From the NCBI GenBank assembly GCA_963736005.1, contig CAVTNB010000003.1, positions 416,001 through 480,000 on the forward strand: DNA of 64,000 bases, read 5' to 3'. The notes below the pieces were generated by a model that did not search any database, was not told the origin of the DNA, and saw only the letters and a program-made list of their open reading frames with translations. Within the stretch, counting starts at the first letter, position 1. Every line of letters starts with the position of its first letter. This stretch comes from an uncultured Pseudomonadota bacterium (GTDB lineage: Bacteria; Vulcanimicrobiota; Vulcanimicrobiia; Eremiobacterales; Eremiobacteraceae). The position numbers and the translations under genes are program-made. Shown piece after piece: positions 41,720-56,009 of the stretch.

Positions 41720-44107
41720 TCATTGCCCGAACTTCAAACCGACGTCGAAGAGCCGAGGTGGCGCATAGTGGTTGCCCTGCGCGTTGAGGATCGTCACATA
41801 GTAGCGATCGTTAAAGAGGTTTTGAATCCGAAACGTAAGGGCGGTCCGCGGTCCGACGCTCACGCCCTTCTCAACCGAGAAGATTGTGTGCGGTGTCTTC
41901 TTACAAAAGCCAGGAGTTCCGGCCGGACAAATGGCCGACGAGAGACCGCTGCCATACTCCGCGTCCGCTGAAAACCACCCATTCTGATTGTCGTTCATGA
42001 GCATGCCGGCGGTGACGCTGTAGCTTTGATCGTGATCCGCGGGTGTGAACCCCGTGGGCGATCCGAAGCAGGGTGCAAGCAGCTGCGTTTCGCATCCCGA
42101 GTTCAACGACAGCGTGTGGGCGACGTTGACGTACGCCCGTCCGTTGCGAATGAGCGGCGCTTGGTAGGTTAGTGCTTCCTGCGAAAGCCGGCCAAGCGTG
42201 TAGTTGATGTCCTGATGGAGCAGCGTCACGCCAACTTGCGTGTCATCGATGAGATCGTTGGCATTCTTCTGCCAAACGCGAAAGCCCAGGGTTCCATTAC
42301 CCAACGGGAGATGGCCTCCAAGTTCGAGTTGCGTATCGCGCTCTGGTTTGAGATCGAATTGCGCGAGCGTCGACTGCAGCGGCAAGTTCAACAATTGCGC
42401 GGCTCGCGGATCGACGTTTTCAAGGGAGAATGGTTCGAAGAAGCGCCCTAGATACACATAGACACTCGCCCGAGGTCCGAAATTTCTCGCGAGCTTGATG
42501 CGCGGACTCACCGCGCCGAATCCACGGGCAAAATCTGTCGACTTGATGTTGAACAGATCCCAGCGCATTCCGTAGTCGAGTGTGTAGGCGTTCCCCATGG
42601 TCCAGCTATCCTCAACGTACGTGCTGTAGATGTTGCCCACGTTGGGATTGTTGTCCACCACCGTAAAGGGTGCATGCGGCATTCCTTTCGTAAAAATCGG
42701 CGCCAAGAAGTTGTTCGGTTGCAGCGTCACCTGATAGTCTTTGATGACGCGGGTCCCATCGTAGGAGATGCCAGCGCGCAGTTCGTGCTTCTCGTATTGT
42801 TTTGAGTAATCGCTTTGAAAGATGTAATCCAGCGCCGTCTTGTCGTCGAAGAGCGAGAAGGCGCACGTGGTGGGAGAAAAGACTCCGGTTTGCACAGCCT
42901 TGGCGCAATCGGTGGAGCTTCCACCGTTGCCGAAAGGCGGTGGAGTTTGGTTGATAGCCTCTCCAAAGGCCCAGTCGTTGACCGGATCGCCGTAGTCCAC
43001 AACACGCGAAACCTTAAATGCCGGTCCAAAACTGAGCGCGCCTGCATTGCCCAGAGCCTGGCGGAATTGAACATTGACGAAGGTGTCGAGTTGCTTCTCG
43101 CTGTCATCCGTGTTCCCAGGCTCTCCAAAGCTGGTAGCATTGGGTATTTGGTTTGTTTGGAAACTGTTGATGATCGAGACGTCGGTGAAGTTGTTATTGC
43201 CGCGCGGCAGCGTCAAGCGCACGAACTCATTCGCGTCGCTTGCGTTGTTGTGCGGCGAACCCAGGTCGGGCGGGTCTAAGCCGCGAGTGGACTGGTCGAG
43301 ATGCAGAGCTGCAGCGAGCCCCCCACCACCACTAAGCGGTGAGTGGAACCCCAGCGTCTCGTCGAGGTTCGTGTACGAACCAACGTGCATTTCACCATCA
43401 ACGCCCGCTGGTCCGGATTGGGCGCGGGTTGAGATGTTGAGTACCGACCCGAATTTGAGTCCATACTGCGCCGGGTACGCACCCTCCATGGCATCGACGA
43501 ACGATACATCGTTGGGATCGATCTCACTGCCGATCTCTCGATTGAGCGCCTGAGGCACCGCAACGCCGTCAACGACGTAGTTGATGACTCCGTGGTCGCC
43601 GTTGAGGTGCACAACGCCGTTGGCCCCGCGCACCGCGCCGGGCAGCTGGATGAGTGCTTCGGGGAAGTTGCCGTTGTATGGCAAGCGCGTCAATACCGTC
43701 TTGTTGAGAACCGTATCGGAGCCGCTGCCGCGGCTGACTCCGGAGGTCACAACGCTCACGCGTCCGAGTTCGGATATTTGAGCAAGCACGAGCATGACCG
43801 TTGCGCCGCCGTTGCTCAGATCCACCCGGACCTGAGCTTGCATGCCACTTGCTGTCGCGGTCACGATATACGTGCCAAGACCGAGACCCGGGAATGTAAA
43901 GTGCCCCTGCGGGTCCGTGATGACTTTGGCCGTGAAATTATTGCCAGCCACCGTGACCGCAGCCCCTGGAACGGACTTGCCGTCTGACGTGACCGTACCG
44001 GACAAGAAAGCGCTCCCACCGGCCGCTAGCACCGCGCTTTTTTCCAAATAGGTGCAAGCGCACCACATTATTGTGAGAACGAGAAAAAACCGAGAAAACT
44101 TCTCCAC
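41720..44107 (-). CDS. TonB-dependent outer membrane receptor with N-terminal carboxypeptidase-regulatory-like domain
   Basis: Signal peptide, G.V...G..VPGA.V, plug YVVDGV..GAYPAQYG, LKPERD, NLFN..Y, terminal beta strand. Confidence 0.88.
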   Translation of the reverse strand: MEKFSRFFLVLTIMWCACTYLEKSAVLAAGGSAFLSGTVTSDGKSVPGAAVTVAGNNFTAKVITDPQGHFTFPGLGLGTYIVTATASGMQAQVRVDLSNGGATVMLVLAQISELGRVSVVTSGVSRGSGSDTVLNKTVLTRLPYNGNFPEALIQLPGAVRGANGVVHLNGDHGVINYVVDGVAVPQALNREIGSEIDPNDVSFVDAMEGAYPAQYGLKFGSVLNISTRAQSGPAGVDGEMHVGSYTNLDETLGFHSPLSGGGGLAAALHLDQSTRGLDPPDLGSPHNNASDANEFVRLTLPRGNNNFTDVSIINSFQTNQIPNATSFGEPGNTDDSEKQLDTFVNVQFRQALGNAGALSFGPAFKVSRVVDYGDPVNDWAFGEAINQTPPPFGNGGSSTDCAKAVQTGVFSPTTCAFSLFDDKTALDYIFQSDYSKQYEKHELRAGISYDGTRVIKDYQVTLQPNNFLAPIFTKGMPHAPFTVVDNNPNVGNIYSTYVEDSWTMGNAYTLDYGMRWDLFNIKSTDFARGFGAVSPRIKLARNFGPRASVYVYLGRFFEPFSLENVDPRAAQLLNLPLQSTLAQFDLKPERDTQLELGGHLPLGNGTLGFRVWQKNANDLIDDTQVGVTLLHQDINYTLGRLSQEALTYQAPLIRNGRAYVNVAHTLSLNSGCETQLLAPCFGSPTGFTPADHDQSYSVTAGMLMNDNQNGWFSADAEYGSGLSSAICPAGTPGFCKKTPHTIFSVEKGVSVGPRTALTFRIQNLFNDRYYVTILNAQGNHYAPPRLFDVGLKFGQ

Positions 44108-44201
44108 GATGACTCCAACTCCTCATGAATATCTTCAAACGACGGCTGTCACAGCCGGCGTATGCCGACCGTAAGACGCGCGCTTTTAGGGCGCTAGGGG
44201 A

Positions 44202-44864
44202 TTACGCGAGGAGCGGAGGTGGACGGTTGGCGAGTTGCGGTGACCAAAAGATGCTGCGTGGCGACCACGCGAAGTTCAAGCATGGCCGGAACACATGGGA
44301 CGTCTCGCCAGCAGCTGGAAGCAGCATCGCCGCCAAGCGTGCTGCAACTCTTGGCAGTCGTGCGGCAATGAGCCGTCCAACAATGGCGAGCAACAGTGCC
44401 GTGACAAGGGCACCAACGACGCCTGCGATCACGTCATGACCGCAAAAGAAGCAACCCTCGCCGATCGCGCTGCCGACGCCGGCCGCAAATTGCAGGGTCG
44501 CCGCGAGCAAATAGAATTGCCAGCCGCCGCCCAGAGGCAGCGTGGCCATCTCATTTGAGAGCAGACGTTTAAAATCTCGGATACCACTGGCCCGCTGTGT
44601 CAGTCCGCGAAATTCACAGACGACGACCGTTGCGCTCGCAAGCGCGATCAGGGCAAGATAGGCGTGACGTGGGGAGAGCACAATGTGCGCGTCAGCATCT
44701 GCGCCCATCCCAAAAAACTCGGATGCCAAATGGGTGAGCACGGCACCTACAACGATGCCCGCTGGAACGGTCCAACGCAAGCTCGATGCCTGAGCCCAAT
44801 GTTGAGAGGTCACAGAAAACAATTTCCCCACTGATAAGTATCGGCTTGCCCAAAGCTGCGGCAT
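44202..44864 (-). CDS. Membrane protein ending in LANRPPP; putative arrest-peptide leader (start 44864 or 44813)
   Basis: About 4 hydrophobic segments, His residues, CFFCGH, C-terminal SPQLANRPPPLLA; lies directly upstream of a TBDR gene. Confidence 0.7.
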   Translation of the reverse strand: MPQLWASRYLSVGKLFSVTSQHWAQASSLRWTVPAGIVVGAVLTHLASEFFGMGADADAHIVLSPRHAYLALIALASATVVVCEFRGLTQRASGIRDFKRLLSNEMATLPLGGGWQFYLLAATLQFAAGVGSAIGEGCFFCGHDVIAGVVGALVTALLLAIVGRLIAARLPRVAARLAAMLLPAAGETSHVFRPCLNFAWSPRSIFWSPQLANRPPPLLA

Positions 44865-44883: not shown

Positions 44884-44906
44884 TTATCGAGAATCATTCT
44901 CGATAA
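44884..44906. promoter_or_regulatory. Fur-family (Zur-like) operator palindrome
   Basis: TTATCGAGAAT-C-ATTCTCGATAA perfect inverted repeat, identical to 55987-56009. Confidence 0.85.
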
Positions 44907-44997: not shown

Positions 44998-45675
44998 ATG
45001 CCAAACCGAGACCGCTTCGCCTGGCTCCTTATTACCGCGACTGCCCTTGCCGCCATGGTCGTCGGCCATGCACTAGAGCTGTGGCTTGAGAACATACATG
45101 CCTTTGGCGAGCGTCCTGCTCAGTATAACCACGTTGCCCAAAGCTTCGTCGTGGAAATGGCTGCGCTTGCGTTTCTCGTTGCAGGGGTCGCTCTTGTCAG
45201 CCGCCTGGTCGCTTTGGCGGCACGATCAGTTCCGCGCGGCGACTCCTTGTTGCCCGCGTTGCACGCGATTGCCCAAAACGGGGTGGGTCGAGTCATCTTG
45301 CGCCTCGTCACCGTACAGCTACTCGCGCTGCTGCTGACGGAGTTTTGCGAACAGCGGCTCTCTGGATTCCAGGGCAATGCGCTCCTGTCGATCGTCGGAC
45401 CAGGTCACGCGACAGCGCTCGCTGTCCATCTGCTTTTGGGTTCGCTGGCTGCATTTTTGCTCTTTCGTTTTGCGCGCTTCGCGTCTGCGCGGACACGCTC
45501 ACTCGTCCATGCCGTCGTTGCTTTCCTGCGCTGGGTTGCGCTGCAGCCCAACGGCACCGCGCAACTTCCGCATGGTCCCTCGAGCGTTCCCACATTTTTT
45601 GCCCGCAAGCTTTGCCTGATCTCTCTCGGACTTGCTAATAGACCACCTCCGATAACCTCCGCACTTTTCGCCTAG
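44998..45675 (+). CDS. Membrane protein ending in LANRPPP; putative arrest-peptide leader
   Basis: About 4 hydrophobic segments with His residues (GHALE, HAF, NHV, GHA..VH), C-terminal LGLANRPPPITSALFA; lies directly upstream of a TBDR gene. Confidence 0.75.
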   Translation: MPNRDRFAWLLITATALAAMVVGHALELWLENIHAFGERPAQYNHVAQSFVVEMAALAFLVAGVALVSRLVALAARSVPRGDSLLPALHAIAQNGVGRVILRLVTVQLLALLLTEFCEQRLSGFQGNALLSIVGPGHATALAVHLLLGSLAAFLLFRFARFASARTRSLVHAVVAFLRWVALQPNGTAQLPHGPSSVPTFFARKLCLISLGLANRPPPITSALFA

Positions 45676-45740
45676 GCACAAAGCCGTCGTGGCTTTGGCA
45701 TAGCCTAGGCTCCTTGCTATGCTTTTTGCGGAGGTCTTCC

Positions 45741-48026
45741 ATGCGATTTGTACTCGCAACCATTGTCTTGGCAATTCTTGTCACTATGTGCTCCTTGAAC
45801 CCAGCATCCGCCGATGTCTACGGATCTGTGCGCGGCGTTGTTTTCGATCCTGGCAATCACCCCATCGACGGTGCGAAGGTCTCGCTCGCGGCGCCTGACG
45901 AAGCCACGCAAACAACGCCGACCGACTCCACTGGGCATTTCCGTTTTGCCCAGGTACCCTTCGACACATACGCACTGAGCGTTGATGCCCAAGGCTTCGC
46001 CCCAGCCTCGAGCGTGGTGACAGTTTTGTCGGGTAACGCGGTGGACGTGACATTCCATCTTTCACTCAAGACGATCGGGCGGGTCGTCGCGGTGGGCACG
46101 TCGACGGGTGCATCAGGGCAACCCGTGAGCGTCAACGTTATTTCGCAACAAACCATAGCAGCGCTGCCCAACGGAAACTCGCTGCAGCGAATAGTACAGA
46201 CCGTTCCCGGCGTCGTTCCGTTTTCATATAACGAACCGGTTGCGCGCGGCTTTCATGGCGTGACCTACGAGATCGACGGGGTCCCGTTACCGCAAACCGC
46301 GGGGCAGTACTTCTCCGAGATTATCGACCCGCGTGACGTCGATCGCCTCGAAGTGTTCACGGGCGCAATGCCCGCCGAGTTCGGCGGTCAGCGTCAGGGC
46401 GCCGTGGTTGACGTGCTCACGAAGTCCGCGAACCAGTTCATCGGCCCAGATGGGGGTACCGTGTCTCTGTTCGGCGGATCGTATAATACCGCTGGTGTGT
46501 CGCTCGATCAGGTGGCTGGAAGCGGAAATTTCCGCGCATTCTTCAACGCCAATCTGTTTCGGAACGCACGTGGTTTGGATTCTCCAACGAGCTCCCCCGA
46601 GCACGACAACTCCAATCAGAGCGACGGCTTCTTGCGACTTCTGTTCTCGCCGAGCTCGCGCGATACGCTGGCGTTTGACTATTCCGAGCAGTATGCAGCG
46701 TTCCAAATTCCAATCGACACGAACCAACACGACCCTAACAACCCAAATTGGTCAGTGCCCGGCACCGACGACAACCAACACGAGTATACCCGCTTTGCGA
46801 ATCTCACGTACAATCACACAAGCGCCGATGGCAATGGCTTTTTCGAGTTGACGCCCTGGTGGAGTTCGGACCGGCTCACCTATCTGCCGGATCCGCAGAA
46901 CGACCTCGCCGGCGCCTCGCAATCCTCGACCTTCCAGGACCGTTACTCCAACTTTGTCGGTCTCGCAGCCGCTCTGTTTCGTGGTGGTGAAAGGAACAGC
47001 GTCAAAGTTGGAGTCAACACCGACGTTCAAAACATGATGAGCGCGTTCAACATCTTGTTCATCGACCCAAACACCGGGAAGCTTGCGCCTCCTTTTGAGG
47101 ACAACGTTGCTCAACGCGGAACGAACACGGGAGTCTATGCCGAAGACAAGTTCTATGCCTCGCCTTACGTGACCCTAGACGGCGGCCTTCGCTGGGATCA
47201 CTCGACTGGCTTCACGTCTGGCAATCAGATTAGCCCGCGCATTGAAGCCAATTTTCAGGCAGACCCAAAGAACGTTGTCCATTTTTACTACGGCCGCTTG
47301 TATGCCGCACCAGCCCTCGAAGACGTGCGGCGAGATGCAGTCGTTATTGGCGGCGGTTCGTCTAACGCAGTGCCGGTGTACGACCTCAAACCTGAGCGAG
47401 ACTCTATTTATGAGGCCGGCGTTGCGCACGAGTTCAGTCCGCTCGTGCACGGCTTCCTTACCTTGTGGGGTCGGTCAGTCAACAACGTCCTCGATACGAC
47501 GCAGATCGGCAGTACGCCGTTGTTTACGGTCTTCAACTCTGCGGGAGGTCAGGCAAGCGGCGTGGAGTTTCGCATCAACGGCCGCGTCCTCAATGGCAAC
47601 TCCTATTACTTCTCGTATGGCACAAGCTACAGCATCGCGTCAGGCATCTCCGGCGGAACGTTCAACTTCCCAGTCAGCGCGCTGCAGGGTGCCAACGGGT
47701 GGGCGCTCGAGGACCACGATCAAACGAACACGATCAACACGGCGTACACGTTCACTGCTCCCGGTGGCCGGTTCGCGACGCTGCAAGCCCTCTTTGGCAG
47801 CGGCTTCCCAGTGCAGTTCGAAAATGGCCCGGGGCGGCTGCCGGCGCACTGGGAACTTGGCGCCTCGTACGGACAGCCGGCGTCGCGCACGGGCGTGGGC
47901 TGGGAAGTGAGCGGCACGAACCTGCTCAATCACTTCTATCTAATCAAAGTCGCGAACGGGTTCAACTCCACGCAGTACTCGGCCGGAAGGCAGGTTACTG
48001 TGAAGTTGACGGCGCCTGTCTACTAA
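45741..48026 (+). CDS. TonB-dependent outer membrane receptor (paralogue of 41720..44107)
   Basis: GGAGG RBS, signal peptide, YEIDGV..GAMPAEFG plug, SPR, LKPERD, DHDQ, NLLN..Y. Confidence 0.88.
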   Translation: MRFVLATIVLAILVTMCSLNPASADVYGSVRGVVFDPGNHPIDGAKVSLAAPDEATQTTPTDSTGHFRFAQVPFDTYALSVDAQGFAPASSVVTVLSGNAVDVTFHLSLKTIGRVVAVGTSTGASGQPVSVNVISQQTIAALPNGNSLQRIVQTVPGVVPFSYNEPVARGFHGVTYEIDGVPLPQTAGQYFSEIIDPRDVDRLEVFTGAMPAEFGGQRQGAVVDVLTKSANQFIGPDGGTVSLFGGSYNTAGVSLDQVAGSGNFRAFFNANLFRNARGLDSPTSSPEHDNSNQSDGFLRLLFSPSSRDTLAFDYSEQYAAFQIPIDTNQHDPNNPNWSVPGTDDNQHEYTRFANLTYNHTSADGNGFFELTPWWSSDRLTYLPDPQNDLAGASQSSTFQDRYSNFVGLAAALFRGGERNSVKVGVNTDVQNMMSAFNILFIDPNTGKLAPPFEDNVAQRGTNTGVYAEDKFYASPYVTLDGGLRWDHSTGFTSGNQISPRIEANFQADPKNVVHFYYGRLYAAPALEDVRRDAVVIGGGSSNAVPVYDLKPERDSIYEAGVAHEFSPLVHGFLTLWGRSVNNVLDTTQIGSTPLFTVFNSAGGQASGVEFRINGRVLNGNSYYFSYGTSYSIASGISGGTFNFPVSALQGANGWALEDHDQTNTINTAYTFTAPGGRFATLQALFGSGFPVQFENGPGRLPAHWELGASYGQPASRTGVGWEVSGTNLLNHFYLIKVANGFNSTQYSAGRQVTVKLTAPVY

Positions 48027-50782: not shown

Positions 50783-51427
50783 CTATTGACTTGCGTTAGC
50801 CGCGTTATGCAAATACGAATCGATGAACGAGACGATCTTGTGCTTGTCGATCGCCGGCAACGTCCCCAATCGTGTCCAGGCGGTGAGCGCAATCCGTGAC
50901 TTCATCGCGGGATAGGGCGCCACGATAACCGCCAGCCCCTGATCTTCGCCGTTTTGCACGTCCGCCGCGCTTGGCTGCAACTCATTTGTGGGAATGAGGT
51001 GCATGTCGTACACCATCGCAATGCTACCGAGCGCGGCCGCCAGACCAGGACAATTGCAATTGTACTGCAGCAACACATTGCCGTGTTCGAGCAAGTGAAC
51101 TTGGACGTACTTGGGAATCGGCACCGGGCTGATAAACGTGTCGGTAAAGAGTTCGCGATGGGGACCAGAGCTCGGCGGGTTGGAATTGTACACGAAATCA
51201 TCCGGTTCGCCCGGTTGTAAGTGCGTGTGGCCTTGCGAGGGATAATACGTACCCAAAAACGGAGCTGGAGAGTTTACCGGCGTGGCGGAAGTGGTACTGC
51301 TCGCAGGAGCAGCGTTGGCGGGGGAGGCAGAAGCCGCCCCGCCACTCCGCGAACCCGAGCACCCAGCGAGCGCGAGGACGCACACGGCAACAGTGAGGCT
51401 TGATCGAACGGCGCACGCAAAGTTCAT
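50783..51427 (-). CDS. DUF3105-like lipoprotein
   Basis: LAGC lipobox; YNSNPPSSGPH, VHLLEHG, YNC, IALTAW. Confidence 0.8.
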   Translation of the reverse strand: MNFACAVRSSLTVAVCVLALAGCSGSRSGGAASASPANAAPASSTTSATPVNSPAPFLGTYYPSQGHTHLQPGEPDDFVYNSNPPSSGPHRELFTDTFISPVPIPKYVQVHLLEHGNVLLQYNCNCPGLAAALGSIAMVYDMHLIPTNELQPSAADVQNGEDQGLAVIVAPYPAMKSRIALTAWTRLGTLPAIDKHKIVSFIDSYLHNAANASQ

Positions 51428-51467
51428 ATCTGAGCTTTCGTCCTGGACGCGCGCCGGGCCTCGCATC

Positions 51468-52103
51468 TCACTGATTGAGGTTGTCTTCGTTGCGCAGCCA
51501 TTGGTTGATGAATGACATGATTTTTGTTCGGTCCACGGCATCGAGCGTTGCCAAGCGCGTCCAGGCGGTGAGCGCTATTTTGTGAGGCATCCCTGGATAA
51601 GGCGCGACAATCACCGCGAGCCCGCTTTCCTCCGCCGAGTGAACTTGATCCGGTGTGGGTTGTACCGTCCCTGGCGGCAAGACTCTGGCATCGAACTCAT
51701 TAGCAATTTCAGCAAGCTGTTGCGCGACGTCCGGGCACAGCAAGCAATTGTATTGCAACAAAATATTGCCGTGCTCGAGCAAGTGCACTTGGACGTACTT
51801 AGGAAGCGGTGTCGCGTTGATCAATACCCCTGTTGTGACTTCCCGATGATATCCAGAAGTTGGTGGATCGCTGTTGTATCGAAAATGCGCAAAGCGACGG
51901 TCGTCACCAGGCATGTGCCCTTGATGGCCCTGCGAAGGATAGTGGGAGCCCGTAAAGGCGCTCGGTGCGGGCTGCGGCGGAGCGTTTGCGCTACGCAAGT
52001 GCATGATGAGCGCCACCACGACGCCGGCGACCACGATGAGGGCGAGCACCGGGGGCAGCAGCGACATCGCCGAAGATTGCTGTTTTTTGATTCTTTTTGC
52101 CAT
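51468..52103 (-). CDS. DUF3105-like membrane-anchored protein (paralogue)
   Basis: TM anchor; YNSDPPTSGYH, VHLLEHG, YNC, IALTAW. Confidence 0.8.
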   Translation of the reverse strand: MAKRIKKQQSSAMSLLPPVLALIVVAGVVVALIMHLRSANAPPQPAPSAFTGSHYPSQGHQGHMPGDDRRFAHFRYNSDPPTSGYHREVTTGVLINATPLPKYVQVHLLEHGNILLQYNCLLCPDVAQQLAEIANEFDARVLPPGTVQPTPDQVHSAEESGLAVIVAPYPGMPHKIALTAWTRLATLDAVDRTKIMSFINQWLRNEDNLNQ

Positions 52104-52915
52104 TAGCTTCCCGGAAAATAAGGCACGGCGTCGATGTCCTGGGTAATGATTCCATGGTACGTGCCGTGTCCAAAGGCAGTCAGATCGACGGAGAACAAGC
52201 CGCCGTTGGTTGTGACGCGCACCGTCACAAGGCCCAGCGGCACGTCGGTCGTCTGCCACGTTTCGACGCGCGATTCGGGCAGTCCGGTCGAACCTCCGAT
52301 ATCTCGTGGGGGAAAGTCGACACTGGTATGCACCGTGTTGAGCGTGGCGCCGCGGATCGAAACGTTCTCCGGCCGAGATGAAACGACGATCCCGGCGCGA
52401 GTGTCGGGCATCGGCAACAAGCCGAACAGCAAGAGCGATTGGAGCGTTTGGTGGTATGTGGCAGGCACTGGCTTCGATGGGTCGCCACCCAAACGAAAGA
52501 GCGCGTCGCCGATCTTGATGATGCCGCCGGCGAATGAATAGAGCCGCAGGCTGTCGTTGAAATCCGGTGCGTCGACGAACATCTTCCAGGTAATGGTTCC
52601 CCCCGCGACCGACTGGCTCGCCACGGGTGAAGAGACCAGTCCAGACGTCTGTGTTTGAATTTCAAAGAACGCCGCCTGCGTGGCTCCAAGTGTGCCAGTT
52701 CCAAAGCCGATCGTCTTCGTCGCAACCGGATTGCCATTCACCGAGACTCGATAGCGTACCCAATCACCCGCCTGTGGGGCGACAAAGAGATAACCAAAGA
52801 GATCGGTCTGCGTGATGGTCTGGCCAACCTGCGGAGCGACGATTGCCGCACGCGCGGGCGCGAGCAAGCCCAGCATCACCCCCACCAGCTCGGCGGTTAC
52901 GAGCAGCGCGCGCAC
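52103..52915 (-). CDS. Secreted hypothetical protein
   Basis: Signal peptide (ARA), overlaps both neighbours. Confidence 0.7.
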   Translation of the reverse strand: MRALLVTAELVGVMLGLLAPARAAIVAPQVGQTITQTDLFGYLFVAPQAGDWVRYRVSVNGNPVATKTIGFGTGTLGATQAAFFEIQTQTSGLVSSPVASQSVAGGTITWKMFVDAPDFNDSLRLYSFAGGIIKIGDALFRLGGDPSKPVPATYHQTLQSLLLFGLLPMPDTRAGIVVSSRPENVSIRGATLNTVHTSVDFPPRDIGGSTGLPESRVETWQTTDVPLGLVTVRVTTNGGLFSVDLTAFGHGTYHGIITQDIDAVPYFPGS

Positions 52916-53328
52916 ACGCCGAAAAATTCCAGTTGATGCTCCGTGAGCGAAAATCCGAGTCCGCGCGATAGGATCCTCTCGTAGTTGGGCAGCGCTTTGC
53001 AGGGAACGTCATCGACGCGGCCGCAGCGCTTGCACACGGCGTGATGGTGATGCTCGCTCGCGCACCAGAGGTAGGCTGCTTCGCCATGCTGTTGGGTTGC
53101 GGTCGACACCCAACCCATCTCACGCAGCGCCTCGAGCGTTCGGTAAATGGTCGCGAGTCCGACGGGCGGGCGTCGGCCACGCATCCGCTCGTGCAGCTCT
53201 TTGGCGGTGAGGTAGCGGCGCGCCGATCGCAGCGCGCCAATCACGTGCTGGCGCTGTTTGGTCATGCGACGCGATGTGCCTGCGAAAAGTTCGCGAGAGC
53301 CTATCGGCGGCTTTGCGGGGGTTTTCAT
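52897..53328 (-). CDS. zur: Fur-family regulator, probably Zur
   Basis: MTKQR, ATIYRTL, HHHHAVCKRCG, FGVCARC; within the znu operon. Confidence 0.85.
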   Translation of the reverse strand: MKTPAKPPIGSRELFAGTSRRMTKQRQHVIGALRSARRYLTAKELHERMRGRRPPVGLATIYRTLEALREMGWVSTATQQHGEAAYLWCASEHHHHAVCKRCGRVDDVPCKALPNYERILSRGLGFSLTEHQLEFFGVCARCS

Positions 53329-54188
53329 TTGACGCGTGCAGCCGTTCGGCGCGCATCGAGCAGCGCGGTCAGCAACGAGCGGCGCTTGGGTGAGAAGATC
53401 ATGGCGCCGAAGAAGCACGCGGTTGCGACGAGGACGATGCTTGCGCCCGAAGCGACGTTGAGATAGAAGGAGAGATACAGACCGACGATGGCCGATCCCA
53501 TCCCGACGATGGCAGAAATGAACATCATTGGGCCGAATCGGTTGGTGAGTTGGTACGCGGTGGCCGCAGGCGTCACAAGCAACGCGGCAACTAAGACGAT
53601 ACCGGCCGCCTGGAGTGAAACGATGATCGTGACCGCCAAAATCCCAAGCAAGAGATAGGAGAGGCCGTCCACCGGCAGCCCGCTGGCGCCGGCCGAGACG
53701 GGGTCAAACGAGGCAAAGAGCAGCTCTTTGTAGAGCAACGCGATGACAGCGAGAATGACCGTCGTCAGCAAAGCAATGATGACGATATCCTTGCGATCGA
53801 TCGCTAAGATGTTGCCGAAGAGAAAATCTTGAAGATCGATGACGTAATTCTTGACGTGTGACATGAGCGCAATGCCCAGAGCAAACGCAGCGGTAAAAAA
53901 CACGCCGATCGTCGTATCGAGCGAGACTTCCGATTTCTTGCTCACAGCGCCGATCCCAAGCGCCGTGAGAATGGTAAAAATGAGTCCGCCAATGTACAGA
54001 TCGAACTTCAGGAGATACGCGATGACGATGCCAGCGAACGATGCGTGCGCCAGACCGTCGCCGATAAACGACATATTGCGGAGCACGACGTAGACCCCGA
54101 CAATCGAGCAGACGAGTCCAATGAGCAGCGCGGTTATGAGTGCGCGCACCATAAAATCGTTCTGCAGGGGCGAAATGAGAAGATCCAC
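53325..54188 (-). CDS. znuB: Zn/Mn ABC transporter permease
   Basis: GDGLAHAS, LFGNIL, SFDP, G..LV.ALL.TPA.TA. Confidence 0.88.
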   Translation of the reverse strand: MDLLISPLQNDFMVRALITALLIGLVCSIVGVYVVLRNMSFIGDGLAHASFAGIVIAYLLKFDLYIGGLIFTILTALGIGAVSKKSEVSLDTTIGVFFTAAFALGIALMSHVKNYVIDLQDFLFGNILAIDRKDIVIIALLTTVILAVIALLYKELLFASFDPVSAGASGLPVDGLSYLLLGILAVTIIVSLQAAGIVLVAALLVTPAATAYQLTNRFGPMMFISAIVGMGSAIVGLYLSFYLNVASGASIVLVATACFFGAMIFSPKRRSLLTALLDARRTAARVK

Positions 54189-54192
54189 GTCG

Positions 54193-55089
54193 TTACGCCG
54201 GCGTTGGGGCGCCGAAGAGCACGTGGCTGCCATAGGTGGCCGAGAGCGTTTCCCGAGTGAGGACTTCGGAGGGCGAACCGAAGGCAACGACGCGATGGTT
54301 GAGGGCCAAGACCCGATCGAACCACTCCGCCACGCACGAAAGATCGTGGGTCGTGGCGATGATCGTAGTGCCCTTCTGCTTCAGCCCTTCGAGCAAGGTA
54401 AAGATGGCGTGCTGCGTGGTTGCGTCGACCCCAGCGATCGGCTCGTCGAGCAGCATGAGCTGCGGGCGTTGCACGAGCGCGCGGGCGACGAAAACGCGCT
54501 GTTGCTGACCGCCTGACAGCTGGCCGATTTGCGCGCCAGCGTAGGCTGACATGCCCAACTGTTCTATGGCTTCTGCCGCTGCCTGACGGTCCGCTGCGCT
54601 CGGCCTTCGGAAGAGTCCCACGCGACCGTAGGTGCCCATGAGGACGACGTCGGTGACGGTGACCGGGAACGACCAATTGACCGACTCGCTTTGCGGCACG
54701 TAGCCGATGAGATGGCGCACTTCGGGGCTGGGCGGTTGCCCAAAAACGAGCACTGAGCCGCATTGCACGGGCAAGAGGCCGGCAATGACTTTCAACAGCG
54801 TTGACTTACCGGATCCGTTTGGGCCGATGATGCCGACGAACTCGCCCCGCTTGACGCCAAACGTTACCTCGTCGAGCACGTCCCTGCCGAAATAGCCGGC
54901 GCACACCCCCTCCACCCACAACGCCTGCTCGGCGATTTTGTCGAGGCTCGGTGCGACCTTGGCATGGCCTTCGTGAGGATGGGTGTGAAAAGTTGCTGGC
55001 GCCACGGCATGGCTGTGGTCCAACGCGGGCGGAACTTCATGTGGCGCAACGTGCGTATGATCGTGTCGCACGGCCGGATCGCTTTTCAT
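54193..55089 (-). CDS. znuC: Zn/Mn ABC transporter ATPase with His-rich N-terminal extension
   Basis: GPNGSGKST, GYVPQ, LSGGQQQR, LLDEP, THD. Confidence 0.9.
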   Translation of the reverse strand: MKSDPAVRHDHTHVAPHEVPPALDHSHAVAPATFHTHPHEGHAKVAPSLDKIAEQALWVEGVCAGYFGRDVLDEVTFGVKRGEFVGIIGPNGSGKSTLLKVIAGLLPVQCGSVLVFGQPPSPEVRHLIGYVPQSESVNWSFPVTVTDVVLMGTYGRVGLFRRPSAADRQAAAEAIEQLGMSAYAGAQIGQLSGGQQQRVFVARALVQRPQLMLLDEPIAGVDATTQHAIFTLLEGLKQKGTTIIATTHDLSCVAEWFDRVLALNHRVVAFGSPSEVLTRETLSATYGSHVLFGAPTPA

Positions 55090-56000
55090 TTGAGCGCCTG
55101 CACGATCGTCTTGACGTCGTGATGCATCATGCCCTCGTAGGAGCTGAGATCGGGAGTGGTGCCCAAGGAGTCATCGTACAAATTGGTGACCGTCTTGATG
55201 CCTGCCGAATCCGCAAGTTGCTTGGCGAGCTTCGGGGAGAATTCCGGCTCGGCGAAGATTGCTCGCACATTGTGCGCTTTTGCTCTTGCAATGAGCGACA
55301 CGAGGTCGGCCGCTGAGGGTTCTTTGCCAGGCGACTGCTCGATCGCGCCGACGTCATCGATGCCATAACGCCGATCGAAGTAAAACCAAGCGTCGTGGTC
55401 GGCGATCATGGCACGCTGACTCGGCGGAATGGTTGAAATTTGCTGACGGGTCCACGCATCAAGCGCGGCAAGGTCTTTGACTTCTGCCGCGGCGTTCTTT
55501 CGGTATAAGGCAGCGTGAGCAGGGTCCGTTGCCACGAGCGCATCGGCAATCGCGCGCACGTACGAAGCGGCGTACTGCGGATCGAGCCAAAAGTGGGGGT
55601 TGGCAAATTCGCTGCCGTTTGGATGGCTCACTTGTCTGGGGAGCGAGTCGCTCAGCACCTCAATGCGCGCCTGCGGCGAGGCGTCTGCCAGCAGTTTTGT
55701 CAGCCACGCTTCCAATCCCGAACCATTTTCCACGATCACCGCGGCATGGCTGAGCTCGATGAGATCCCGCGGCGCCGGTTCGTACGTTTCAGGAGATGCG
55801 CCGATGGGCACGAGCCAATGAACCTCGAGTGCGTCCCCCGCGACCGTTTTGACAAGGGAGGCGAGGGTGGAGGTGGTCGCGACGACGATTGGTTTCCCGG
55901 AAGCGGTCGCAGCGGGAGCGGTACCCGTGCTGTGCCCGCACGCCAGCAGTGCAGCTATGGCCACGCATACCGAACCAGCTCGGATTTTATCGAGAATCAT
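55086..56000 (-). CDS. znuA: Zn/Mn ABC transporter substrate-binding lipoprotein
   Basis: LLAC lipobox, ENG.GLE, NPHFWLDP, HDAW.YF, IF.E, DSLG. Confidence 0.88.
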   Translation of the reverse strand: MILDKIRAGSVCVAIAALLACGHSTGTAPAATASGKPIVVATTSTLASLVKTVAGDALEVHWLVPIGASPETYEPAPRDLIELSHAAVIVENGSGLEAWLTKLLADASPQARIEVLSDSLPRQVSHPNGSEFANPHFWLDPQYAASYVRAIADALVATDPAHAALYRKNAAAEVKDLAALDAWTRQQISTIPPSQRAMIADHDAWFYFDRRYGIDDVGAIEQSPGKEPSAADLVSLIARAKAHNVRAIFAEPEFSPKLAKQLADSAGIKTVTNLYDDSLGTTPDLSSYEGMMHHDVKTIVQALK

Positions 56001-56009
56001 TCTCGATAA
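55987..56009. promoter_or_regulatory. Fur-family (Zur-like) operator palindrome overlapping the znuA start codon
   Basis: TTATCGAGAATCATTCTCGATAA, identical to 44884-44906. Confidence 0.85.

Follow-up and report, generated by a model that had tools for sequence, protein, structure and literature searches.

This locus raises the question of whether the last codons of one gene hide the ribosome-binding site of the next gene, and what would uncover that site. The window analyzed is a 64,000 nucleotide (nt) stretch of DNA from an uncultured Pseudomonadota bacterium (GenBank assembly GCA_963736005.1, contig CAVTNB010000003.1, positions 416,001 to 480,000 of the forward strand), and coordinates given here are positions within it unless stated otherwise. 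On the minus strand of the window a leader gene is followed by a gene encoding a TonB-dependent receptor (Table 1). An original prediction, made from the letters of the DNA, was that an anti-Shine-Dalgarno (anti-SD) sequence within the final codons of the leader pairs with the receptor's Shine-Dalgarno (SD) sequence. Comparison of orthologues clearly argues that this pairing is a selected feature of the RNA and not a product of chance. The preferred reading, which we consider rather probable, is that the junction is a ribosome-pausing switch: the codons of the Arg-Pro-Pro-Pro (RPPP) tail of the leader would hide the receptor binding site unless a paused ribosome covers them, and the pause would be tuned by a metal.

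The leader reading frame ends with AAC CGT CCA CCT CCG CTC CTC GCG TAA, i.e. N-R-P-P-P-L-L-A-stop. The anti-SD begins at base 2 of the second proline codon and runs across the Pro-Leu-Leu codons. Positions 44218–44208 pair in antiparallel orientation with 44124–44113 through 10 Watson-Crick pairs, one G-U pair and one bulged U, exactly as predicted, and refolding returns the same pairs. The tail of the 16S rRNA of this genome is complementary to AGGAGGU. In the partition function the 10 pairs have probabilities of 0.98–1.00, while the G-U pair is split 0.49/0.50 over two registers. An internal hairpin that shortens the loop had also been predicted, and it is present in the ensemble: the nine pairs of 44172–44151 have probabilities of 0.97–0.99. 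The minimum free energy (MFE) structure of 44085–44250 includes both helices (−54.8 kcal/mol, z −2.29; 5 of 200 shuffles equally good), so that folding bears out the two of them by either calculation. In relatives the closing A-U pair of the inner hairpin is replaced by G-C (L122; loci of the comparison are labeled L) or eight of the nine pairs are retained (L199), and the predicted shortening of the loop is supported across the family, since spacers of at least 30 nt fold better than their shuffles in 76 of 81 loci (median z −1.87). No intrinsic terminator is called in the spacer, and the inner hairpin was therefore rejected as a terminator; a weak one at 44270–44256 sits within the leader. 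A scan of the window against Rfam at the gathering threshold gives tRNA only and no riboswitch, and a sigma-70 scan shows no internal promoter for the minus-strand receptor.

The GTG at 44107 is the earliest possible start of the receptor, as an in-frame TGA 18 nt upstream excludes any earlier one, and the start codon assumed in the prediction thus holds. A later start at the next in-frame ATG (codon 14) was rejected; it would remove most of the signal-peptide-like N-terminus. In the close relative L122 (genome G160) the proximal GGAG, at the equivalent of 44116–44113, is lost; the GAGGAG is kept about 10 nt from the GTG and is still paired.

At this locus alone the pairing exceeds chance only modestly. 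The duplex between the 36 nt from the Arg codon and the 20 nt before the start has an energy of −18.7 kcal/mol. Three hundred synonymous recodings of the minus-unit tail have a mean of −11.5 kcal/mol (p 0.027), and pairing of equal strength is seen with 1.8% of foreign tails. However, among 290 co-directional junctions called roughly in this genome, which is GC-rich, 27 also reach −18.7 kcal/mol, and proline codons (CCN) are inherently complementary to the SD sequence; the locus by itself is therefore only modest evidence. These two facts also favor the alternative that proline codons, being rich in C, pair with a G-rich SD by chance. It had been argued further that the equal geometry of the minus-strand unit and of the plus-strand mirror unit (Table 1) indicates selection. 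Selection is upheld by the orthologues, but the argument itself is weak, since the leaders are related and single junctions often pair so well. The two units had been supposed to be independent but are not fully so, because a distant homology links one leader to the other (hhalign probability 92.8%, E 3.9e-7).

A profile made from 21 leaders has matches in 78 of the 261 genomes of the class. Three of these genomes are flagged as unpublished, and their loci were used no further; this removed L074, L079, L128 and L180, a duplicate. Titles of the named records with a leader are Eremiobacterota, Vulcanimicrobiota or Baltobacteraceae in 22 of 28 cases. The sample, which includes metagenome loci, comprises 125 unique leaders, of which 116 are usable; nine were dropped because the motif is more than 22 amino acids (aa) from the end (three), because too little downstream DNA is present (five), or for want of an SD-led start (one). 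A TonB receptor follows the leader in 114 of the 116 loci.

The covariation check named in the original prediction comes out in its favor: the pairing is retained in orthologues with different, compensating letters. Thus in L008 CUCCUAGA pairs with UCUAGGAG, in L036 CCCUCUCGA with UCGAGAGGG and in L127 CUCCAGUC with GACUGGAG. The mean energy of each tail with its own binding site is −16.6 kcal/mol, versus −11.3 when partners are swapped (116 loci; 0 of 10,000 permutations), and the own tail beats 95% of foreign tails in 64 of 116 loci. The gap persists in 89 and in 39 dereplicated leaders, the 39 representatives with less than 50% identity giving −16.8 versus −11.4, and is gone in both 36-nt windows immediately upstream. 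Disjoint nearest-neighbour pairs favor the own partner in 38 of 44 cases and do not in six. When the register is fixed on the SD core, the flanking bases are Watson-Crick in 34% of cells compared with 24% in shuffles (89 loci; 0 of 10,000). Natural codons outdo the mean of their synonymous recodings in 102 of 116 loci, with p at or below 0.05 in 55. Most orthologues pair through the variable codons that follow RPPP. This last property, together with the swap, recoding, flank and sister-pair tests, all of which exceed their controls, largely refutes chance pairing, which is now extremely improbable. Some results do count against the comparative case: a small cognate bias of 0.8–0.9 kcal/mol is found in the window 108–73 nt upstream (12 of 5,000), 14 of the 116 loci are no better than their own recodings (L132, for example, is unremarkable with p 0.30), and the loci are kin, so that the permutation counts overstate significance. 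All tests nevertheless point in the same direction.

In E. coli, RPPP is the strongest staller of the XPPP motifs tested and has its second proline in the P site, as reported in PMC4176338, and CruR's RAPP motif is described as stalling in the same register (PMC12992588). A ribosome placed accordingly would cover the anti-SD, which in the window occupies the predicted P-site codon, the A-site codon and the two codons that follow. In the model about 70% of the SD pairing involves the 24 nt that begin with the Arg codon (0.70 per SD base), and in the family as a whole the bulk of it falls 12–23 nt past the beginning of this codon. When the pause footprint is kept unpaired, opening the binding site costs at least 1.4 kcal/mol less in 101 of 116 loci; with a control block placed upstream this is so in 21 of 116. 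The median opening energy over the 116 loci drops from 12.5 to 7.3. For the unit under study the value falls from 14.8–17.9 to 6.4–8.7, the range reflecting how much downstream sequence is included; a different folding window gives a fall from 18.6 to 11.9. The computation thus places the 5′ arm of an SD-hiding helix beneath the predicted stalled ribosome, the arrangement of SecM and CutF. The model predicts a large shift in accessibility and not a fully open site.

The start of the leader is most likely the GTG at 44813, as L122 and L199, both closely related, have GTG-Thr-Ser-Gln in frame. An ATG at 44864 is out of frame in L122 and is disfavored. The leader has no Pfam (E 0.05) or NCBIfam family. 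PF11162 (DUF2946) is not among the matches of 21 leader members at E 1, and a genome-wide search with it gives one sub-threshold match, located elsewhere and containing stops; judged by these profiles the leader is not a DUF2946 protein. A search of 1.84 billion proteins with the leader profile gives 215 clusters (50% identity), and Actinomycetota matches in the Atlas (0.95) are taken as a lead only. The AlphaFold2 model (pLDDT 84) displays helices at positions 14–42, 47–73, 97–117 and 127–163 and a tail of low confidence. Foldseek gives no match to it at E 0.001; a fold relation to ABC-exporter helices (best Z 8.3, root-mean-square deviation 6.8) was rejected as a common helical arrangement.

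Hydropathy and loops rich in Lys and Arg suggest that both ends of the leader are inside and that the putative ligand residues are on the outer face. Among 89 leaders H27 is present in 88, E31 in 80 (with seven His and two Asp in its place), H49 in 88 and E118 in 88. Cysteines C120 and C123 are found in 55 and 54, and this CxxC is about 73 residues before the Arg. The distance from E118 to R196 is 75–80 aa in 87 of the 89 leaders despite a poorly conserved linker. The last helix has a hydrophobic core that stops near residue 145, which leaves about 50 aa to R196. The sequence R-[APG]-P-P is within the last 22 aa of 122 of the 125 profile-chosen leaders and further in for the other three; the form is RPPP in 110 of 116. 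Of 150 library proteins, 131 carry [RHQKN]-x-P-P within their final 30 aa. By its sequence the leader has the layout of RAPP-like regulatory upstream open reading frames (uORFs), i.e. a conserved C-terminal R-x-P-P, an N-terminal localization signal more than 30 aa away and the leading place in a unit with a co-oriented target. Two leader variants, L059 and L060, which are located before plus-type receptors, combine RAPP with a repeat rich in Met and His close to the N-terminus.

Which metal might be sensed is suggested by a palindromic box between the divergent leaders. At up to three mismatches the genome contains this box at two sites only, 11 kb apart, and the reversed control gives none. 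The second site lies where a metal ABC importer operon begins (Table 1). The best PDB matches of the Zur-like regulator at the end of that operon are 3mwm, which we take to be Zur of S. coelicolor, and 2o03, titled ‘probable Zinc uptake regulation protein FurB’. The binding protein of the importer scores 206 bits with AztC (zinc) and 205 with MntC (manganese), both below the cut-off. Of 103 family leaders, 23 have a similar 7-1-7 box upstream, and control windows have none. The box at 44884–44906 may be under Zur control, and the candidate signals rank as zinc, most likely, followed by copper and then by manganese or another metal. In the receptor, H172, H692 and H740 are present in 55 of 55 aligned receptors and six further His in 51 of 55; no solved structure matches it by sequence.

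The box at 55987–56009 contains the called ATG (56000) of the ABC binding protein, so either the true start is later or the mRNA is leaderless. Two tandem DUF3105 genes (50783–52259) come after the Zur-like gene and an unnamed open reading frame in the metal ABC operon.

The leader also appears to be exchanged with a Fur-family gene. At 57 orthologous receptor loci (L002–L058) there is a leader in 21, a Fur-family gene within 1.5 kb in 27, neither in nine and both in none, although the short flank of 1.5 kb favors such exclusivity and L228 has both. The adjacent Fur-family genes come with a box, and this distribution upstream of the same receptor is suggestive of an exchange of regulatory modes. 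The binding sites of leaderless receptor loci are more open, the median being 7.6 compared with 11.8 with a leader (21 leader and 22 leaderless loci, SD energy at or below −4.5; 4 of 58 loci have no start or no match). In some leaderless copies of the receptor the box is immediately before the ATG, as in a leaderless mRNA.

We infer that the helix functions as a switch, and the proposed order of events is as follows. The leader would be inserted co-translationally, with its four helices already in the membrane when the ribosome reaches RPPP. The ribosome would pause at RPP-P, with Pro2 in the P site, and cover 44218–44208, and the receptor would then be translated. Metal bound by H27, E31, H49 and E118 on the outer face would change the duration of the pause. 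Scarcity of the metal (zinc most likely, copper or manganese possible) would keep the pause and thus the receptor on; with metal bound the ribosome would be released and the helix would close again. This direction is chosen because the receptor is taken as an importer under a probable Zur box. A wider reading, possible and put forward tentatively, is that such four-helix leaders sense zinc lineage-wide outside the inner membrane while still ribosome-bound, through the His-Glu-His-Glu set, and gate the receptor by an anti-SD in the RPPP codons, stacked under or exchanged with Zur-type repression. Literature searches found no zinc-responsive nascent-chain switch.

Several observations weigh against the metal-tuned pausing switch. 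With the ribosome in place the probability that the SD is unpaired rises only from 0.07 to 0.20, as other partners remain. The box is seen at only 23 of the 103 leaders, and the comparison of loci with and without leader is confounded by GC content (0.68 versus 0.52). Copper rather than zinc is suggested by the CxxC, present in 55 of 89 leaders, and by the SCO1 or CopC/CopD genes in the neighborhood of four of the scanned loci. RPPP stalling in E. coli is reported to be rescued by elongation factor P (EF-P; PMC4176338), and efp is present in this genome; EF-P-proof arrest is described for RAPP and RGPP, and RPPP is absent from the main text of PMC12992588. The stop codon is only 3–13 codons after RPPP, and the helix would therefore in many cases also be opened by a ribosome that is terminating.

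The last point leads to plain translational coupling, in which each finishing ribosome melts the helix, RPPP lengthens its dwell, and regulation is by the Zur-like repressor alone. The anti-SD is within the reach of a ribosome at the stop codon, a transcriptional box is already present, and three leaders read through the SD itself. However, coupling leaves the fixed E118-R196 spacing and the near-invariant ligands unexplained, as well as a 200-aa membrane protein which is kept only in cis, before the receptor in 114 of 116 loci, and we regard it as quite unlikely. In the three leaders concerned (L041, L160 and L169) the frame passes both the SD and the receptor start, yet RPPP or RAPP and a short anti-SD/SD hairpin are kept.

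The EF-P points bear on a different alternative, in which a real switch would respond to EF-P activity or to the capacity for membrane insertion, in the manner of MifM or SecM, and not to a metal, the His and Glu residues being structural. Four helices with a tail of fixed length to RPPP are also the build of a translocon force sensor (as described in PMC10987492), CutF output is reported as constitutive without EF-P (10.1101/2025.02.05.636593), and this genome also has, before a LytR-CpsA-Psr gene, a RAPP leader that is not related. Near-invariant charged His and Glu on one membrane face point instead to a metal, as do a box that recurs only at a metal importer, the exchange with Fur-family genes and the His-rich receptor; sensing of insertion or EF-P is thus unlikely.

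The metal-tuned switch resembles known systems in part. Like CutF, which precedes cutO in Rhodobacter capsulatus (PMC9973294; 10.1101/2025.02.05.636593), the leader would be exported co-translationally and has a predicted outer-face metal motif and a C-terminal proline stretch (PPP in CutF); in CutF the pause is described as melting a stem-loop that hides the SD of the next gene. However, CutF, a DUF2946 protein, is reported to be small and secreted, with CxxxC, an intergenic stem-loop and a copper oxidase as target, and copper induces its pause. Here there is a four-helix membrane leader with His and Glu, its stall codons contain the anti-SD, the gene controlled would encode an importer and the predicted direction is opposite.

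CruR (Bp2923) of Bordetella pertussis, located before bfrG, is likewise described as a leader before a TonB-dependent receptor with a C-terminal R-x-P-P and a fixed spacing between metal motif and stall motif (PMC9426467). There metal is reported to relieve the pause and turn the importer off (PMC9426467; arrest in PMC12992588), and the direction is likely the same here. CruR differs in having RAPP, a CxxC 45 residues before the stall motif, Rho termination and DUF2946, as described, whereas the present leader has RPPP, a spacing of 75–80 aa, an SD-hiding helix and no DUF2946 match; four long hydrophobic helices replace the DUF2946 layout of a single export signal and a soluble periplasmic part. 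The terms ‘Shine-Dalgarno’ and ‘RBS’ are absent from the main text of PMC9426467. Control of the CruR type, where the chief effect of the pause would be to prevent Rho-dependent termination and the helix would play a lesser part, gains from a stretch richer in C than in G over the leader end (42–43% C versus 19% G, about 44276–44160), as in cruR (PMC9426467). The cruR rut site is described there as unstructured, however, while here the stretch is paired and co-varies with the SD, and the high C content of the region already follows from its proline and anti-SD codons. We consider this control very unlikely.

The RAPP/RGPP arrest peptides of Streptomyces lividans, e.g. SLIV_18480, are also similar, with four predicted transmembrane segments, a predicted His metal site and a metal-related gene downstream, and uORFs of this type before TonB receptors are described as widespread (PMC12992588). 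That survey differs in that RAPP and RGPP are counted and not RPPP, and that its TonB-class leaders are reported to be almost all signal-peptide proteins; its main text describes no SD-hiding helix. In SecM, MifM, VemP and uDF_RQH a stalled ribosome disrupts an SD-hiding stem-loop according to PMC10987492, but these are described as monitoring Sec or YidC and controlling sec or yidC genes, whereas the target here is a probable metal importer. Literature searches found no paper on this leader family, while the supplementary uORF tables of PMC12992588 might hold RAPP or RGPP members. Metal-sensing ribosome-stalling leaders are proven for copper only (CruR and CutF), and the survey counts among its open questions whether arrest regulates the genes downstream and in what way (PMC12992588). 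The present family gives a comparative answer, an SD-hiding arm located in the stall codons and co-varying at more than 100 loci, and would extend this kind of leader to RPPP and to a polytopic His/Glu sensor, probably of zinc. The leaderless, Fur-family-linked copies of the same receptor provide a natural comparison.

Table 1. Positions of the leader, receptor, box and importer features within the window.
Feature	Position	Strand	Basis or remark
Leader gene, 203 aa, four predicted transmembrane helices	44202..44813	−	GTG start inferred
Candidate outer-face metal site H27, E31, H49, E118; in a subset also C120-x-x-C123 and D126	44433..44732	−	residue 1 is the codon at 44810
Arg-Pro-Pro-Pro codons, predicted pause site (Pro2 in P site, Pro3 in A site)	44214..44225	−	stall register as reported in PMC4176338
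Anti-SD CUCCGCUCCUC, in the Pro-Pro-Leu-Leu codons of the leader	44218-44208	−	folding and comparative tests
Inner 9-bp hairpin atop an interrupted outer stem, folding up the 94-nt spacer	44151..44172	−	pair probabilities 0.97-0.99
Receptor ribosome-binding site GAGGAGUUGGAG: GAGGAG, then GGAG 5 nt before the start	44124-44113	−	sequence, 16S tail
TonB-dependent receptor, 795 aa, GTG start	41720..44107	−	PF13620, PF07715 (weak), PF00593
Perfect 23-bp palindromic Fur-family-type box between the divergent leaders	44884..44906		genome scan
Mirror unit, which has an anti-SD/SD helix of its own: the other RPPP leader (44998-45675) and the other TonB-dependent receptor (ATG 45741)	44998..48026	+	z −3.59
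Second copy of the box, start of the metal ABC importer operon	55987..56009		genome scan
Metal ABC importer operon genes	55086-56000, 54193-55089, 53325-54287		ends in Zur-like gene, about 52897-53277

Leaders related to the two units are also found before other genes. Those of the plus-unit type precede SCO1/SenC (L110, plus strand) and CopC (L185, minus strand), and one leader of the minus-unit family precedes an AcrB-family transporter (L170, minus strand). In contig G000:C3 of the genome a third membrane leader, ending in E-R-A-P-P-L-L-A-S at 302538 on the plus strand (L262:101-2062), is located before the LytR-CpsA-Psr gene. Neither leader profile matches it, and the codons past its RAPP pair with the GGAG of the next gene in the MFE structure. 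A frame in G000:C2 that ends at 190870 on the minus strand is 93 aa from stop to stop and terminates in E-R-A-P-P-L-L-T-A with no clear gene after it; this is possibly a leader remnant.

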